Under the pieces are notes generated by a model, which saw only the letters and a list, made by a program, of their open reading frames with translations, searched no databases and was not told the origin of the DNA. 64,000 nt of DNA, from assembly GCA_017537175.1 (NCBI GenBank), contig JAFYLH010000012.1:65375-129374 (forward strand), read 5' to 3'. Position 1 is the first letter of the stretch. The number at the start of each line of letters is the position of its first letter. The position numbers were made by a program, and so were the translations under genes. The stretch is from Clostridia bacterium. GTDB lineage: Bacteria; Bacillota; Clostridia; Oscillospirales; CAG-272. Of this stretch, positions 3,501 to 60,589 are shown one piece after another.

Positions 3501-5017
3501 GTAACGAAAGCTTCACAAGAGAGATTCCCGCATTGGGCTATAAGATAAGCTTTGATGCAGGTGAGGGCAAAAAGCTCGGCTCCACCGCATTTATAATTCA
3601 AAAGGGTCAGAACTATGCAGAGATTGTAGGCGAGGATCCTCAGGCGATTCTCGAAGACACAAGCCTTGTTGGTTGGTATGCTGACGGCTATATGCTTAAT
3701 ACCGCAGACAGCTTTGACTTTGATGATGATGTAACCTTTACAGCAGTATGGGAAGAAGAGGGCGAGCACACCCACAGATATACCTCAAAGGTAACAAAGG
3801 AAGCAAGCTGTACCGCAGACGGTGTTATCACCTACACCTGCCGCTGCGGAGACAGCTATACAGAGATGATCCCCCAGCTCGGTCACGAATATGTTGGCTG
3901 TGAGACCCTTGCTCCCACCTGCGGTGCAGAGGGCGAATATACCTATACCTGTACCAACTGCGGGGAGGGCTACACCGAAAGTATTGCTAAGCTTGATCAC
4001 AGCTTTGACACAGGAACTACCACTACAATGCCTGCATGTACCACTGAGGGTACAAAGACCTATACCTGTACGGTATGCGGTGAAACCAAGACTGAATCTA
4101 TCGCGGCTCTCGGTCATGTATGGAGAGCCTGGGAGGTAGTAAAGGAAGCAACCGAGACTGAGGACGGCTTACAGCAAAGAATCTGCCGTCGCGGCTGTGG
4201 TACGGTTGAAGAAGAGATCATCCCCGCACTCGGCGGTGGAGAGGTAACCGAGGTTACAGTATCCTCCGACGGTCCTAACCTTACTATCAGCGGTATGGTT
4301 GATGTAAAGGATGTATTTATCGCTCTTGGTGATTACAATACCTACGCAGATGTTAAGGCAAACGCAGTAGTTCGTCTTACTCCCGATAAGCTTGCGGGAG
4401 CAGAGTCCTATACATACACACTCAAGGCAGGCGGTTACTACACCGTTCTTGTAAGATACAATGACGGCACAAGCGTATATCTGTATGAACAGATAGATGT
4501 TACCGAGCCCGGTTTCTCTGCAGACGGCTTACAGCTTACAGTATCTAACCTTGATAATGTAAAGGTTATCAGAACCGCATACGGTGAATACACCACAGTA
4601 TCTCAGATCAAGAAGGCAGAGGGCGCAAGAGCCTTCACCGCAAAGAACGACATCAAGGGTGCTGATTCCTATAAGATCCAGTACAGATACAACGGTAAGG
4701 TAACAGTAGCAGTACAGTACAATGACGGCTACACCAAGATCTACACCTATACCGTAGAGCAGAAGGTTCCCGTATTTACACAGTCTAACAATGTAGTTAC
4801 CATCGGCAATATCGACGATCTCTACATCGTAAGATATGCTCCCGGCGAGTGGAAGACATCATCCGAGATCAAGAAGGCAGCAGGCTCTGTAGCTATCAAA
4901 GCTTCTGCAGCAGTTGACGGTGTGATCACCGTAAAGAACCTCAAGTCGGGTACTTACACATTCTGTGTTCAGTATAACGATGAGTCTTATAATTATTACG
5001 TAATTACCGTAGAATAA
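590..5017 (+). CDS. Secreted multidomain glycoside hydrolase family 18 (chitinase-like) protein, 1475 aa, with Listeria-Bacteroides-type repeats, Cys-rich modules and three C-terminal tandem repeats
   Basis: N-terminal signal peptide (LMTVVMLIGVSAFALPVNA); repeats ending in F(R/L/K)GW; GH18 catalytic signature DGLDIDFE at nt 2576-2599; AGGAGG RBS. The start could instead be ATG 596. Confidence 0.8.
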   Translation: MAMTKRVISLLMTVVMLIGVSAFALPVNAAESCTIIFDANGGTGVGMPENITVDAGTIITLPASSPTKPGMVFRGWAFSKEDADNGVITYAAGTTPQIHVNNGAILYASYAYSVVLNHGNRGWGNAAVQLYKFPGKDLELYHKKDLIQQNYGMLPGASGETTNLMVFMEWNTSQAFNGLGDGIGYHERYTTNASTTLYCIWGNPVAYNANGGTFPATGTDRQSKYVVNWSINRHDDTTFGLFDFPDEENSPVKDGCRLYTNEAGETVYARVFLNGNIYRYESDDSWLDMPIFNGPGYKWEDFYTYILPIDERALELYAIWEPSVTYKANGGKGADIVEYMEHIGPTLFSYADYTVRNNSFVNDGRFLGWNTKPDGSGESYEAGQVITDYDTSEPIILYAQWSDGCEAKEYTVTFNAMEGYLPFEAQSFEIAYGESFKDAFELPIPTRSGYLFKGWYNEETESYLNYADEIYSLDRDSVYTAEWVRHDNHYIEDFKVESTCMTEGSYTSYCTTCDYYNTITYGKVEHTFTDWNYVGDTNLVVRSCTLCGASENDEIPPSVQQQVIAYCNKNVAYKDVDFPYIDVLNYLGPAIDGGPGEYPFQESYFGEAAYMRKVATAKNPNIKIVCTVFNRNIVKFENWLRTPASRAEFANHLTGVVFANNFDGLDIDFEFPSDLSLRDEYALLLGEIRARFNAKTAQTGRQYILSIATPAAHWATEKFDLVACAQYLDYFNIMNYDLYCGSAVPYTHHHTPPFDNIDPYGHVPTGGSVQGDINMYKALGIPGEKIVSGMGLYSREWQGVPNRNNGLFQPAALQASNYHYDLLLASFVNRNGYVRYWDDTSKAPYLFNAGAGIFLSYEDPESINYKCQIVSKERVRGVMVFDYVTCDGTGIFAHIRNQLGSVLHACTPGRTETKAASCSENGYTKTYCYFCEALIKHTEVYHEGHYATDWTVVTPATKGSAGIEEAICLNCNESFTREIPALGYKISFDAGEGKKLGSTAFIIQKGQNYAEIVGEDPQAILEDTSLVGWYADGYMLNTADSFDFDDDVTFTAVWEEEGEHTHRYTSKVTKEASCTADGVITYTCRCGDSYTEMIPQLGHEYVGCETLAPTCGAEGEYTYTCTNCGEGYTESIAKLDHSFDTGTTTTMPACTTEGTKTYTCTVCGETKTESIAALGHVWRAWEVVKEATETEDGLQQRICRRGCGTVEEEIIPALGGGEVTEVTVSSDGPNLTISGMVDVKDVFIALGDYNTYADVKANAVVRLTPDKLAGAESYTYTLKAGGYYTVLVRYNDGTSVYLYEQIDVTEPGFSADGLQLTVSNLDNVKVIRTAYGEYTTVSQIKKAEGARAFTAKNDIKGADSYKIQYRYNGKVTVAVQYNDGYTKIYTYTVEQKVPVFTQSNNVVTIGNIDDLYIVRYAPGEWKTSSEIKKAAGSVAIKASAAVDGVITVKNLKSGTYTFCVQYNDESYNYYVITVE

Positions 5018-5029
5018 TATAATGAAGAA

Positions 5030-5056
5030 AACAGCAGGGGTAACCCTGCTGTTTTC
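5030..5056 (+). terminator. Rho-independent terminator after the GH18 gene
   Basis: CAGCAGGG-GTAA-CCCTGCTG stem followed by TTTT. Confidence 0.7.
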
Positions 5057-5062
5057 AACCAT

Positions 5063-5163
5063 AATTCCGCACTCCGTGTTCCGACCGGAGGGAGTGCCAA
5101 GAGGCTTTGCCTCAGGCCGCATTCCGCATTCCTCTCATTTTCCGTTCATTATTTCCGCTTGAC
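5063..5163. repeat. Heptad-repeat mosaic element, partial copy C: TTCCGCA-type heptads flanking a 36-bp core (5081-5116)
   Basis: AATTCCGCACTCCGTGTT-[core]-CCGCATTCCGCATTCCTCTCATTTTCCG...; the core is 33/36 identical to the reverse complement of 60479-60514. Confidence 0.7.
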
Positions 5164-10831: not shown

Positions 10832-10920
10832 TTAGGAGTTAGGAGTTAGGAGTTAATGAAGATTTTTGTTTCTTTATGAAACAAAAATCCACATTAATTT
10901 TGCATTTTGCATTTTGCATT
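10832..10920 (+). repeat. Heptad-repeat palindromic element, copy A: (TTAGGAG)x3 - TTAATGAAG - 12-bp hairpin - CACATTAA - (TTTTGCA)x3
   Basis: Read directly; heptads at 10832-10852 and 10898-10918, stem 10861-10872/10878-10889; same architecture as 60451-60589. Confidence 0.8.
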
Positions 10921-10937
10921 CTCCGAAGGAGGTATTT

Positions 10938-19375: not shown

Positions 19376-19410
19376 AAATGTCCTGTGACACGATGTATCA
19401 CAGGACATTA
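19376..19410. repeat. Left copy of a 35-bp direct repeat that is itself a terminator hairpin (clpX terminator)
   Basis: AAATGTCCTGTGACACGATGTATCACAGGACATTA; 34/35 identical to 19743-19777. Confidence 0.85.
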
Positions 19411-19711
19411 CAGACTGTCGAAAAAGTCGGTCGGCCGTGTGGGGCAAGTTGCCCCTGCCATACTACGCGCTGTAGGACATTGGACATTTATCATAAAAAA
19501 CACGACACAACGCAAAAAGCATCTTACCAATATGGAAAGTTATTATTATAATGACTATATCTCCCAATATAGTCTGATAAGTATTCAAAAGTGGTGTATA
19601 CATCGAGTATACACCACTTCTTCACACTTTCCCGCGAAAAGGGTCACTACCGTACTTAGTACGCCTACGGACCCTTTTCACGAAAACCGACACTTCCTTT
19701 TTCGAAGTCTG
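19411..19711 (+). mobile_element. MITE-like non-coding element, copy 1 (301 bp) with CAGACT(G)TCGAAAAAG / CTTTTTCGAAGTCTG terminal inverted repeats
   Basis: TIRs read directly; blocks shared with 47156-47396 include a 13-bp-stem hairpin (19589-19619) and CTACCGTACTTAGTACGCCTACG. Confidence 0.75.
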
Positions 19712-19742
19712 CCAGCGTGTCGATAGGTTTATCGACACGCTG

Positions 19743-19777
19743 AAATGTCCTGTGACACGATGTGTCACAGGACATTA
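19743..19777. repeat. Right copy of the 35-bp hairpin direct repeat; overlaps the 3' end of the 19765-21039 gene
   Basis: AAATGTCCTGTGACACGATGTGTCACAGGACATTA; perfect 13-bp stem. Confidence 0.85.
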
Positions 19778-46445: not shown

Positions 46446-47150
46446 ATGAGAAATATAATAGTAACCGGCGGCAGCAGAGGAATAGGTGCCGCCATAGTTC
46501 GCCGCTTTGCCCAAAACGGTGATAATGTGGTATTCTTTTATCGCACAAACGACAGGGCGGCAGCTGAGGTAGGCATACCCTGTATCAAGGGTGATATCTC
46601 TGATCCTCTTGCGGTAAAGAGGATGATATCAAGAGCGGCAGATTATCTTGGCGGTGTAGATGTGCTGGTCAACAATGCGGGTATAGCACAGTCGGCAATT
46701 ATGGGTGATATTACCGATACCGACTATATGAATATGATCAACACAGACCTTTCGGGCTCTTTTTATTGCTGCCGTGAGGTCATACCCTATTTTCTTCGCA
46801 ATCACAGCGGTGCTATAGTTAATATCTCCTCTATGTGGGGAGAGGTAGGCGCATCTATGGAGGTTCATTATTCTGCGGCAAAGGCAGGAGTTATCGGACT
46901 TACCAAGGCTCTTGCAAAGGAGCTTGGTCCCTCGGGGGTGCGGGTAAACTGTGTGACCCCCGGTATGATAGATACCGATATGAACAAGGGCTACACTAAG
47001 GAGGATATTCAGGCAATAGCAGACGAGACCCCTCTTATGCGTATAGGTAAGCCCGAGGATGTAGCCGAGGCGGTGTTCTTTTTGGCATCGGACAAGGCAA
47101 GCTTTATTACAGGACAGATACTCGGTGTTAACGGCGGATATATTATATAA
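46446..47150 (+). CDS. Short-chain dehydrogenase/reductase (FabG-like)
   Basis: TGGSRGIG cofactor motif, NNAG, catalytic S...YSAAK. Confidence 0.85.
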   Translation: MRNIIVTGGSRGIGAAIVRRFAQNGDNVVFFYRTNDRAAAEVGIPCIKGDISDPLAVKRMISRAADYLGGVDVLVNNAGIAQSAIMGDITDTDYMNMINTDLSGSFYCCREVIPYFLRNHSGAIVNISSMWGEVGASMEVHYSAAKAGVIGLTKALAKELGPSGVRVNCVTPGMIDTDMNKGYTKEDIQAIADETPLMRIGKPEDVAEAVFFLASDKASFITGQILGVNGGYII

Positions 47151-47155
47151 ACTGA

Positions 47156-47396
47156 CAGACTTCGAAAAAGTCGGTCGGGCGTGTTAAATAAATATATCTT
47201 TGGTTTATTACCCCAACCAACAGACAGTGATCAAATATTTATCATTGCTCCCAATAAAGTCAGATAAGCATTCAAAAGTGGTGTATACATCGAGTATACA
47301 CCACTTTTTCACACTTTACCGCCAAATCCTCTCTACCGTACTTAGTACGCCTACGAGAAGATTTGACGGCAACCTACCTTCCTTTTTCGAAGTCTG
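47156..47396 (+). mobile_element. MITE-like non-coding element, copy 2 (241 bp) with perfect 15-bp terminal inverted repeats CAGACTTCGAAAAAG
   Basis: TIRs read directly; shares hairpin AAGTGGTGTATAC-ATCGA-GTATACACCACTT (47276-47306) and the CTACCGTACTTAGTACGCCTACG core with copy 1. Confidence 0.75.
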
Positions 47397-47419
47397 CAGG
47401 GAGTTTTTTAAACTCCCTG
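47397..47419 (-). terminator. Hairpin at the 3' end of the cysteine desulfurase gene (stop codon in the loop)
   Basis: CAGGGAGTTT-TTT-AAACTCCCTG directly abutting the right TIR of the element. Confidence 0.5.
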
Positions 47420-48547
47420 TTTTACTTTTTGTAACGTATCGCAGAATATATCTACCTCTTGCGGAGTGTTGTAAGCACCAAAGGATACTCTCACAGCACC
47501 TTTATCTCCCGTGCCAAGTGCTCTGTGAGCCAAGGGGGCACAGTGGAAGCCTGCCCGTACACATATACCCTCTTTGTCAAGGGCTTCTGCCACAAGATCG
47601 GGAGACACACCCTTTATATTGAAGAGTACTATCTCAGAGCTTTGCATATCAGGACAGTATACCTCTATGCGGTCATCGTTGCACAGCCTCTCAAGCATTC
47701 TCCTGCAAAGCATGGTACCGTGATCCCTTATATCAGCCAATCCCCGTTGTCGTACCTCCTTTACTCCCGCCAGCAGACCCGCAATGGCAGGAGTGGCAAG
47801 GGTGCCTGCTTCAAGGCGCTCGGGAAGATAAAGAGGCATATTCTCTTCAAGTGATGCCATACCGCTGCCGCCCTGAACTAAGGTATGCAGCATTCTTGCA
47901 GCTTTACCCTTGTATTTTTGAGAGAATACTATTCCCCCCACACCTTGAATACCGTACAGGGATTTGTGTCCCGCAAAGCAAAGGGCATCAATATTGCATT
48001 TACTCATATCTATAGGGTATATTCCCGCAGTCTGTGCCGCATCCACTATAAAGAACAGACCCCTTTGTCTGCACAGCTCTCCTACAGCTCCGATGGGAAG
48101 TCCCACGGGACAGATGTTGGAGTGGTGGGTACATACTATCCCCCTTGTACGGGATGTTATCCTTGAGCATATCTCCCTTATCATAGCCTCGGTGGGCTTG
48201 AGGGTATCAAAGACATCATAATCATAGCCCTCGGCTATAATAGGGCGCAGTACCGAGTTGTGCTCCATATTTGATATCAGTATATGGTCGCCCTTGCGGG
48301 CTATCCCCTTGATGGCGATGTTGAGGGCATGGGTGGTGTTGAGGGTAAAGACCACCGACTCGGGCTTGGCAGAAAAAAGCTCGGCAAGCTCACAACGGCA
48401 GTCATAAACCGTTTTGGCTGCTGCTGCCGACATACGGTGTCCCCCTCTTCCGGGGTTACCGCAGTACTGATCTATACATCTGCCTACCTCAGCTTTGACC
48501 GACTCGGGCTTTGGGAAGGTAGTTGCGGCATTGTCAAAATATATCAT
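47408..48547 (-). CDS. Class V aminotransferase-fold cysteine desulfurase / selenocysteine lyase family protein
   Basis: PLP-lysine region FAGHKSLYG, active-site Cys in RAGFHCAP; 379 aa. Confidence 0.85.
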   Translation of the reverse strand: MIYFDNAATTFPKPESVKAEVGRCIDQYCGNPGRGGHRMSAAAAKTVYDCRCELAELFSAKPESVVFTLNTTHALNIAIKGIARKGDHILISNMEHNSVLRPIIAEGYDYDVFDTLKPTEAMIREICSRITSRTRGIVCTHHSNICPVGLPIGAVGELCRQRGLFFIVDAAQTAGIYPIDMSKCNIDALCFAGHKSLYGIQGVGGIVFSQKYKGKAARMLHTLVQGGSGMASLEENMPLYLPERLEAGTLATPAIAGLLAGVKEVRQRGLADIRDHGTMLCRRMLERLCNDDRIEVYCPDMQSSEIVLFNIKGVSPDLVAEALDKEGICVRAGFHCAPLAHRALGTGDKGAVRVSFGAYNTPQEVDIFCDTLQKVKQGV

Positions 48548-48762: not shown

Positions 48763-48891
48763 AAATTTCAACCTCCCTATTTCAGTATATGCAAAAATTC
48801 GTAATTGGGAATTAAATGAAGAAAACTGTTGCCTTAAAGCAACAGTTTTCAACTACAATTATTCATCATTCATTATTCATTACACTTGTGC

Positions 48892-60450: not shown

Positions 60451-60589
60451 AGTTAGGAGTTAGGAGTGAGGAGTTAGGCCCGAGGCAAAGCCTCTTGGCA
60501 CTTCCTTCGGTCGGAGTTAATGAAGATTTTTGTTGCTTTGGGCAACAAAAATCCACCTTAATTCCGCATTCCGCATTCTGCACTCCGCA
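60451..60589 (+). repeat. Heptad-repeat palindromic element, copy B: (AGTTAGG-type)x4 - 36-bp core - AGTTAATGAAG - 12-bp hairpin - CACCTTAA - (TTCCGCA-type)x4
   Basis: Heptads 60451-60478 and 60562-60589; core 60479-60514; stem 60525-60536/60542-60553. Confidence 0.8.

Follow-up and report, generated by a model that had tools for sequence, protein, structure and literature searches.

Results

The element and its neighbors

Between two convergent genes in the window (the whole 64,000-nt stretch of DNA analysed here) lies a 241-bp element at positions 47156–47396. The ORF on its left (46446–47150) encodes a short-chain dehydrogenase (SDR; adh_short_C2, E 7e-64), and the ORF on its right (47408–48547, minus strand) encodes a class-V aminotransferase/cysteine desulfurase (E 8e-72). 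The element begins 5 nt past the SDR stop codon, in what would now be the 3' untranslated region of that gene, and adjoins on its other side a hairpin, CAGGGAGTTT-TTT-AAACTCCCTG, which contains the desulfurase stop codon (47408–47410). This hairpin scores as a terminator on the plus strand, where the T-run comes after it. A sequence-only reading of the locus had placed the element in just this way and had described it as the second copy of a MITE-like repeat with perfect 15-bp terminal inverted repeats (TIRs). The two repeats are indeed free of mismatches (0 in 15 bp). Their sequence, CAGACTTCGAAAAAG, has three matches in the window against 0.09 expected, the third being located at 19697–19711 on the minus strand, within copy 1.

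When the two copies are aligned, approximately 30 bp at the left end and 150 bp in the right part are conserved, while the middle is divergent (Table 1). The helix formed by 47324–47332 and 47356–47364, taken in the earlier reading for an alternative version of a helix in copy 1, pairs at 8 of 9 positions and extends to the full limits of H2, in keeping with that view. The suspicion that the ORF predicted across the element (47200–47622) is spurious was also well founded: it has no Pfam match, and part of it runs antisense to the desulfurase gene. Erroneous ORF calls of this type are one consequence of the repeats described below.

Table 1. Positions of the two copies of the element in the window, of their parts and of the adjoining palindromes.
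Feature	Position	Strand	Remarks
Copy 2, class-A element	47156–47396	+	241 bp; without H3 and flanking duplication
Copy 2 left TIR CAGACTTCGAAAAAG	47156–47170	+	family consensus CAGACTGTCGAAAAAG then TCGGTCGGRCGTG
Copy 2 AT-rich middle segment	47171–47261	+	sequence differs by subfamily, length constant
Copy 2 hairpin H1, AAAA-GTGGTGTATAC-ATCGA-GTATACACCAC-TTTTT	47274–47309	+	resembles a bidirectional terminator
Copy 2 helix H2, enclosing the core	47320–47368 (47320–47333/47355–47368)	+	subfamily CAAATCCTCTC/GAGAAGATTTG
Copy 2 core, 21 nt TACCGTACTTAGTACGCCTAC	47334–47354	+	inner hairpin CGTAC-TTA-GTACG
Copy 2 inverted IR	47382–47396	-	internal IR in the consensus; serves as right end of copy 2
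Native terminator palindrome outside copy 2	47397–47419	.	presumed target; holds the desulfurase stop codon
Copy 1, complete element	19411–19742	+	aligned with copy 2
Copy 1 left IR	19411–19426		
Copy 1 core	19648–19668		
Copy 1 internal IR	19697–19711	-	
Copy 1 H3	19713–19742		
Copy 1 duplicated 34-bp terminator palindrome, left copy	19376–19409	.	
Copy 1 duplicated palindrome, right copy	19743–19776	.	1 mismatch with left copy, beside the loop

A repeat family of uncultured Clostridia

A scan of 185,579 species genomes for exact matches to the invariant 21-mer TACCGTACTTAGTACGCCTAC yielded 53 loci in about 10 metagenome-assembled genomes (MAGs) of uncultured Clostridia from gut and rumen, labeled Oscillospiraceae, "Eubacteriales" or Christensenella-like. 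At least 35 of these loci, from 7 MAGs, carry elements of the type found in the window, here called class A, and four of the MAGs hold 7–10 copies each. The elements are small and non-coding, have TIRs and occur as many dispersed copies in different contexts, within and across genomes; the description of the repeat as MITE-like and multi-copy was therefore apt. Some near-identical copies have different flanks (L017, L029, L040 and L043), which points to recent activity. Class-A copies are often found at contig ends, where the repeats terminate contigs in MAG assemblies (L001, L056, L068, L070 and L071). No protein is encoded in class A, and the ORFs that cross the element have no Pfam match.

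Family members measure 263–334 bp, with a consensus of about 275 bp. From left to right, the consensus comprises the left inverted repeat (IR), an AT-rich segment, GATAAGCATTCAA, hairpin H1, TTTCACACTTTTCC, helix H2 with the core, AAAACCTACCTTCC, an inverted copy of the IR, one base and hairpin H3. The left IR reads CAGACTGTCGAAAAAGTCGGTCGGACGTG and its internal inverted copy CTTTTTCGAAGTCTG. Although the AT-rich segment is variable in sequence, the distance from the left end to the core is about 180 nt in nearly all copies. H3 is a 30-bp terminal hairpin, CAGCGTGTCGATA-GGTT-TATCGACACGCTG. The true right end of the element lies after H3, whose outer arm is itself an IR copy, and further internal IR copies exist besides those at the ends. 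The family ends, CAGACTGTCGAAAAA (left) and TTTATCGACACGCTG (right, with CAGCGTGTCGATAAA as its reverse complement), are complementary at 12 of 15 positions. Thus, what had been described as the right TIR of copy 2 is a genuine inverted repeat, but an internal one by the family consensus, typical copies having an additional 30 bp of H3.

Two sequence variations affect the interior of some elements. In L009, L012, L027 and L049, about 47 nt (GGTTGGGGTTCCCCGAAACGAGCTTGTCGAGTTTTGGGGGTTCCGAA) are inserted after ...CACGAAAACC; this nested insertion forms an imperfect hairpin and occupies the same position in different subfamilies. At this place copy 1, L020, L055 and L060 have AAAACCGACACTTCC instead of AAAACCTACCTTCC, which may be a scar.

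Copy 2 departs from the consensus in several respects. It retains the left IR (minus one G), H1, the H2-core module and the internal IR; H3 and the left palindrome copy are absent. Its perfect 15-bp TIRs exist because one G was lost from the consensus left end CAGACTGTCGAAAAAG. The CAG...CTG hairpin that follows the right repeat had been regarded as a trait shared by both copies. This interpretation does not hold: in copy 1, and in most other copies, the hairpin is H3 and belongs to the element, whereas in copy 2 it is the terminator native to the locus, and its right arm encodes the C-terminus of the desulfurase (...QKVKQGV*). The likeness of this native hairpin to H3 looks like a coincidence or the product of a microhomology deletion. 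Homologues of the desulfurase end in ...IIKEDD*, and since this C-terminal tail is not conserved, it constitutes evidence neither for nor against an alteration. Three other copies are devoid of H3 (L024, L042 and L049), with at most one adjacent hairpin each.

Inspection of the flanks of copy 2 revealed no target duplication. The copy is identical across other assemblies of the same species, and all the same-species contigs compared contain the element; the nearest relatives show 70% amino-acid identity in the desulfurase and a different synteny, so that no empty site of copy 2 offers itself for comparison. A six-nucleotide resemblance between the left flank, TAAACTGA, and TAAACTCCCTG was considered as the remnant of a lost hairpin; being a post-hoc 6-mer match, it is not claimed as such. 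Copy 2 might once have had H3 and the left palindrome copy and since lost them, or it might have arisen by a one-sided insertion.

Target choice and duplication of the palindrome

Of the 13 complete class-A copies for which both flanks could be read, 11 are bracketed by a direct duplication of one hairpin. The duplicated unit, 22–35 bp long, consists of a G+C stem-loop with 2–3 A on one side and 2–3 T on the other, and its sequence is different at each locus. In L007, L038 and L050 the same kind of duplication was judged by eye. The absence of a target duplication, noted in the earlier reading, is therefore correct for copy 2 but not for the family, copy 1 included, in which the entire terminator palindrome is duplicated. 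No pre-insertion (empty) site was recovered.

The ORFs that flank the elements point toward them in about 24 of 26 cases on the left and about 24 of 26 on the right, and 13 of the 16 fully resolved sites are convergent. With ORFs pointing inward and hairpins specific to each locus, the targets are bidirectional intrinsic terminators, recognized without a common sequence. A preference for terminator hairpins between convergent genes had been surmised before; comparing the flanks of the copies supported it, the flanks being gene 3' ends in nearly all cases and the hairpins unrelated in sequence. Insertion contexts were not random and the structure of the element was conserved.

The paired hairpin copies differ in or beside the loop, and the one difference in L027 is a compensatory pair. 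Since the changes are confined to loops or are compensatory, they suggest that both flanking copies stay under selection as hairpins. In these copies, the full T-run is found only on the outer side. The two exceptions among the 13 complete copies, L026 and L055, have a different hairpin on either side, which may reflect recombination or assembly chimerism. L055 (3800–4160), from another assembly of the window's species, is identical to copy 1 as far as H1, beyond which it has another right half, with H2 of the CAAGCCGTCTC type and the core variant GCCGAC, beside an Ldh gene. The join could be either a recombination between copies or an assembly chimera; with its different right half, L055 counts as a third copy in this species, in addition to the two in the window.

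The close association with extragenic palindromes, combined with several conserved covarying hairpins that could form in single-stranded DNA, calls to mind elements that are moved as single strands by an HUH enzyme (IS200/IS605 type or REP/RAYT-like), the hairpins being the recognition structures of that enzyme. However, IS200/IS605 and REP/RAYT elements have neither TIRs nor target duplications, class A has both, and no Y1/HUH gene was found near the copies. Membership in either group therefore fails, and we deem movement by such an enzyme very improbable.

Covarying hairpins and an invariant core

H1, H2 and H3 covary strongly, in agreement with the earlier proposal of a structurally conserved interior. 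The loop of H1, CATCGAG, is conserved. Covariation was quantified in an alignment of 23 sequences (A2) over the cells of H1, the inner core hairpin and H3: 95.9% of the cells are in standard pairs, as compared to 30–41% with slid partners, and 17 pairs change on both sides, as compared to 5–11 in slid controls; none of 500 shuffles equalled the observed values. RNAalifold found compensatory changes in 20 of 38 pairs. H2 exists in 44 distinct 61-nt versions that all adopt one fold, in which an outer helix leads through an internal loop to the hairpin CGUAC-UUA-GUACG; the version in copy 2 (CAAATCCTCTC/GAGAAGATTTG) is also present in goat-caecum MAGs. The 21-nt core is essentially invariant, as the copies outside the exact-match selection differ at only 1 position. 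Folding of copy 2 gave z = -10.2 and -12.0, relative to shuffled sequence, on the two strands. Substitutions in the IRs behave differently in that they are not compensated (for example, copies on SVTI contigs have CAACGTCTG as internal IR and an unchanged left end), which fits the IRs being protein-binding sites rather than a helix.

One could envision that the element is mainly a structured non-coding RNA gene family for which mobility is secondary. Its transcript, about 200–270 nt long, would end at the flanking terminator copy, and the core would bind a conserved host factor. The covariation of the three hairpins and the near-absolute conservation of the core, even beyond the exact-match set, would be expected of such a gene, as would the fold z-scores of -10 to -12, and the T-runs on the outer side of the hairpin copies would terminate transcripts leaving on either strand. 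The occurrence of the core in classes with unrelated ends (see below) also fits. So does a promoter-like site in copy 1 (TTACCA-17-TATAAT). On the other hand, copy 2 has no promoter and none is conserved in the family. Nor does folding decide on a strand: G-U pairs are more frequent on the minus strand, which has the better fold in 48 of the 53 segments, but z-scores hardly differ (-7.65 versus -7.19), and we did not retain G-U asymmetry as an indicator of the RNA strand. No known RNA was recognized: the covariance models of Rfam 15 gave 0 matches in the window at the gathering score, searches of 18 related loci returned only a T-box and tRNAs located elsewhere, searches in E-value mode produced only noise in the form of microRNA-like hairpins, and tRNA-like features were not found. 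Inverted-repeat ends combined with a target duplication are the hallmark of DNA transposition rather than of gene duplication. We therefore think it improbable that the element is primarily an RNA gene.

The H2-core module is not confined to class A. Class-B elements, about 200 bp long with ends GGAGTGTCCCATGCAC...GTGCCACTCC (GGAGTG...CACTCC), carry the same module in Christensenella-like MAGs (L003, L031, L032, L058, L066 and others). They show no hairpin duplication, and some copies are tandem units of about 185 bp. In L013, a class-B copy (1025–1337) precedes a T-box leader (Rfam RF00230, 99 bits) by about 90 nt. In a third core-bearing element, L065 (RHMF01064646.1, ~1428–1448), a direct repeat of about 70 bp lies on either side and comprises a gene end and its terminator; the two hairpin copies have diverged by compensatory changes. 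L004 is a fourth variant with the module.

Search for a parent element

Neither a transposase nor a full-length parent turned up when the window, about 550 kb of related loci and collections of plasmids, phages and viruses were searched. Fuzzy searches for the element ends in the related loci and a survey of inverted repeats within the window disclosed no autonomous partner. Clustering of ORFs across loci produced only MATE, P-type ATPase and S-layer families. Neither blastn of the element, the left IR and the longer-variant junction (described below) against plasmids and phages nor scans of viral contigs identified a parent, and a metagenome scan with the left end gave 0 matches. L060 was examined as a junction with a parent and dismissed, the adjacent ORF being an ordinary metabolic gene on a low-coverage contig.

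A longer class-A variant is found at two loci of one Oscillospiraceae lineage: L010 (1–100) and L041 (1–60; also L070, 12530–12546, and L071). It matches the short element through H2 and ...CCTACCATCCT, and then continues with CGTATAATATAGTCAGTAG...GTAAGTATAATGCTACACTGTAAAAGGTGCTTGTGGA. The junction reads ...AAAACCTACCATCCT|CGTATAATATAGTCAG... in SIG691-like Oscillospiraceae (contigs SVTI010000xx and Ga0318466). The new sequence contains TATAAT-like and AAAGG-like motifs, reminiscent of a promoter and a ribosome-binding site, as if a gene were to follow. Every contig with the longer variant ends there; when approached through the flanking DUF2079 gene, both JGI contigs stop at the same junction. 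If the longer variant were the parent, the MITE would be a fusion of the left 230 bp and the right 45 bp of that variant, and the right end of the parent would be predicted to read ...TTTTTCAACGTCTG-C-CAGCTTGTCGATAGGTTTATCGACAAGCTG.

The gene-like context of the longer variant (L010, L041 and L070), together with a long structured non-coding region at one end, might suggest an orphan guide-RNA scaffold, either the bridge RNA of an IS110 element or the omega RNA of a TnpB/IscB system. Yet identical elements are present at unrelated targets, which indicates that targeting is not guided by sequence, and it is the loops that are invariant and the stems that vary, the reverse of what programmable loops would require. 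Furthermore, no Rfam match was obtained, and the IS110, TnpB and IscB families do not duplicate their target. A guide-like relation between H2 and the target can be dismissed, as identical H2 copies are found at different hairpins. The element thus fails to qualify as a scaffold of either kind, IS110 bridge RNA or omega RNA of TnpB, and we regard this interpretation as very improbable.

Discussion

The findings described above make it probable that the sequence at 47156–47396 belongs, as a decayed or truncated copy, to a family of non-autonomous DNA transposons (MITEs), about 275 bp long, that inhabits uncultured gut Clostridia. We propose that the element depends on a transposase acting in trans, which would bind the IRs and choose its target for its DNA structure, an extruded cruciform or hairpin, rather than for its sequence. 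The enzyme would connect the two element ends across the hairpin base, at points separated by a few bases, and repair would then duplicate the whole palindrome. A stagger of a few bp across the base of an extruded palindrome would generate a duplication made of the palindrome plus 2–3 bp on each side. That the length of the duplication tracks the palindrome implies that the target is recognized by DNA shape. H1, the H2-core module and H3 would be structures acting in cis, in single-stranded DNA or in RNA, with H1 having the appearance of an internal bidirectional terminator.

Each of the convergent neighbors would keep a terminator following insertion, making the event nearly harmless. If this model holds, a transposon that confines its insertions to bidirectional terminators, duplicating each one, leaves both neighbors with a terminator and can reach a high copy number at almost no cost. 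Targeting based on shape would also be relevant to the mechanism of transposases and to the design of structure-directed integration tools.

The closest documented behavior is that of IS1272/TnSha1, of the IS1182 family; the analogy is one of behavior. These elements insert into inverted-repeat or terminator hairpins just downstream of genes with no sequence specificity (PMC4923244, PMC5678879). IS1272 has 16-bp terminal IRs, with extra IR copies in IS1272L and three IRs in TnSha1, and removes or replaces the target hairpin without leaving a duplication (PMC4923244, PMC5678879). Both papers credit palindrome targeting in the IS1182 family to Siguier et al. (PMC4923244, PMC5678879). Class A resembles IS1272 in being hairpin-specific and in having IR-type ends with extra IR copies. 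Unlike IS1272, which deletes the hairpin, class A duplicates it (in the 11 of 13 complete copies mentioned above); moreover, IS1272 is autonomous and 1.9 kb long, whereas class A has no linked transposase. Another member of the IS1182 family, ISPse1, duplicates 4 bp when it inserts into ordinary DNA (PMC3281130). A 4-bp duplication in one case and hairpin targeting in the other would fit a model of "small stagger plus palindrome". Our literature search found no description of a terminator-duplicating insertion sequence and no match to the sequence strings of the element.

Classical bacterial MITEs such as Correia, RUP, ERIC and Nezha are likewise small, gene-less, multi-copy, TIR-bounded and intergenic, and they too break short-read assemblies. 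They differ from class A in making fixed duplications of 2–10 bp, as opposed to duplications of 22–35 bp set by the palindrome. In addition, the interior of class A contains several covarying hairpins and a 21-nt core common to different MITE classes.

Bacterial group II introns of class C, like the insertion sequences that target REP, land on extragenic stem-loops or intrinsic terminators. As in class A, such sites serve as safe landing places for the REP-targeting elements IS1397 and ISPpu9/10 and for the introns. However, these elements make no duplication or one of 3–4 bp, and they rely on a ribozyme and reverse transcriptase or on the specific REP sequence (for the REP targets of insertion sequences, see PMC1525189). 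Neither intron domains nor a REP consensus were found in class A.

Further analogies can be drawn with IS231, of the IS4 family. This insertion sequence favors the short palindrome GGG(N)5CCC, which becomes the duplication, and has non-autonomous derivatives. The likeness to class A lies in these two features, the palindromic target that becomes the duplication and the existence of non-autonomous forms; the difference lies in the duplication itself, which in IS231 is fixed at 10–12 bp with a sequence consensus and does not involve whole terminators of variable length. A derivative named MIC231 is mentioned in PMC6199540.

The role of the core deserves separate consideration. Its presence in MITE classes with unrelated ends is hard to explain if it is a transposase-binding site, and its sequence conservation across these classes argues that it does something other than bind a transposase specific to one class. 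The core hairpin is a candidate for a new cis-acting RNA or DNA motif of gut Clostridia. It is tempting to speculate that the family reflects two novelties at once: a transposase that recognizes extruded terminator cruciforms or hairpins and integrates across their base, and the core as a new structured module read by a conserved host factor. We hold this combined proposal to be possible but doubtful. If true, it would define a mode of integration measured by structure, a complement to the hairpin-deleting mode of IS1272, and would make TACCGTACTTAGTACGCCTAC a structured RNA or single-stranded DNA module present in at least three MITE classes from different orders of Clostridia and carried or exploited by the MITEs.

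Other repeats in the window

The window contains two further pairs of repeats. Segments 10849–10921 and 60513–60585 are 85% identical and form a hairpin whose arms, TTAATGAAGATTTTTGTTTC/GAAACAAAAATCCACATTAA, measure about 20 nt; three tandem copies of the 8-nt repeat TTTTGCAT come after it, degenerate in the second segment (60513–60585). Segments 5016–5066 and 48810–48860 are terminator-like hairpins with conserved flanks, AAT.AATGAAGAAAAC...GTTTTCAAC.A.AATT, and different stems (CAGCAGGG/CCCTGCTG versus TGTTGC/GCAACA); they may represent another small repeat family.
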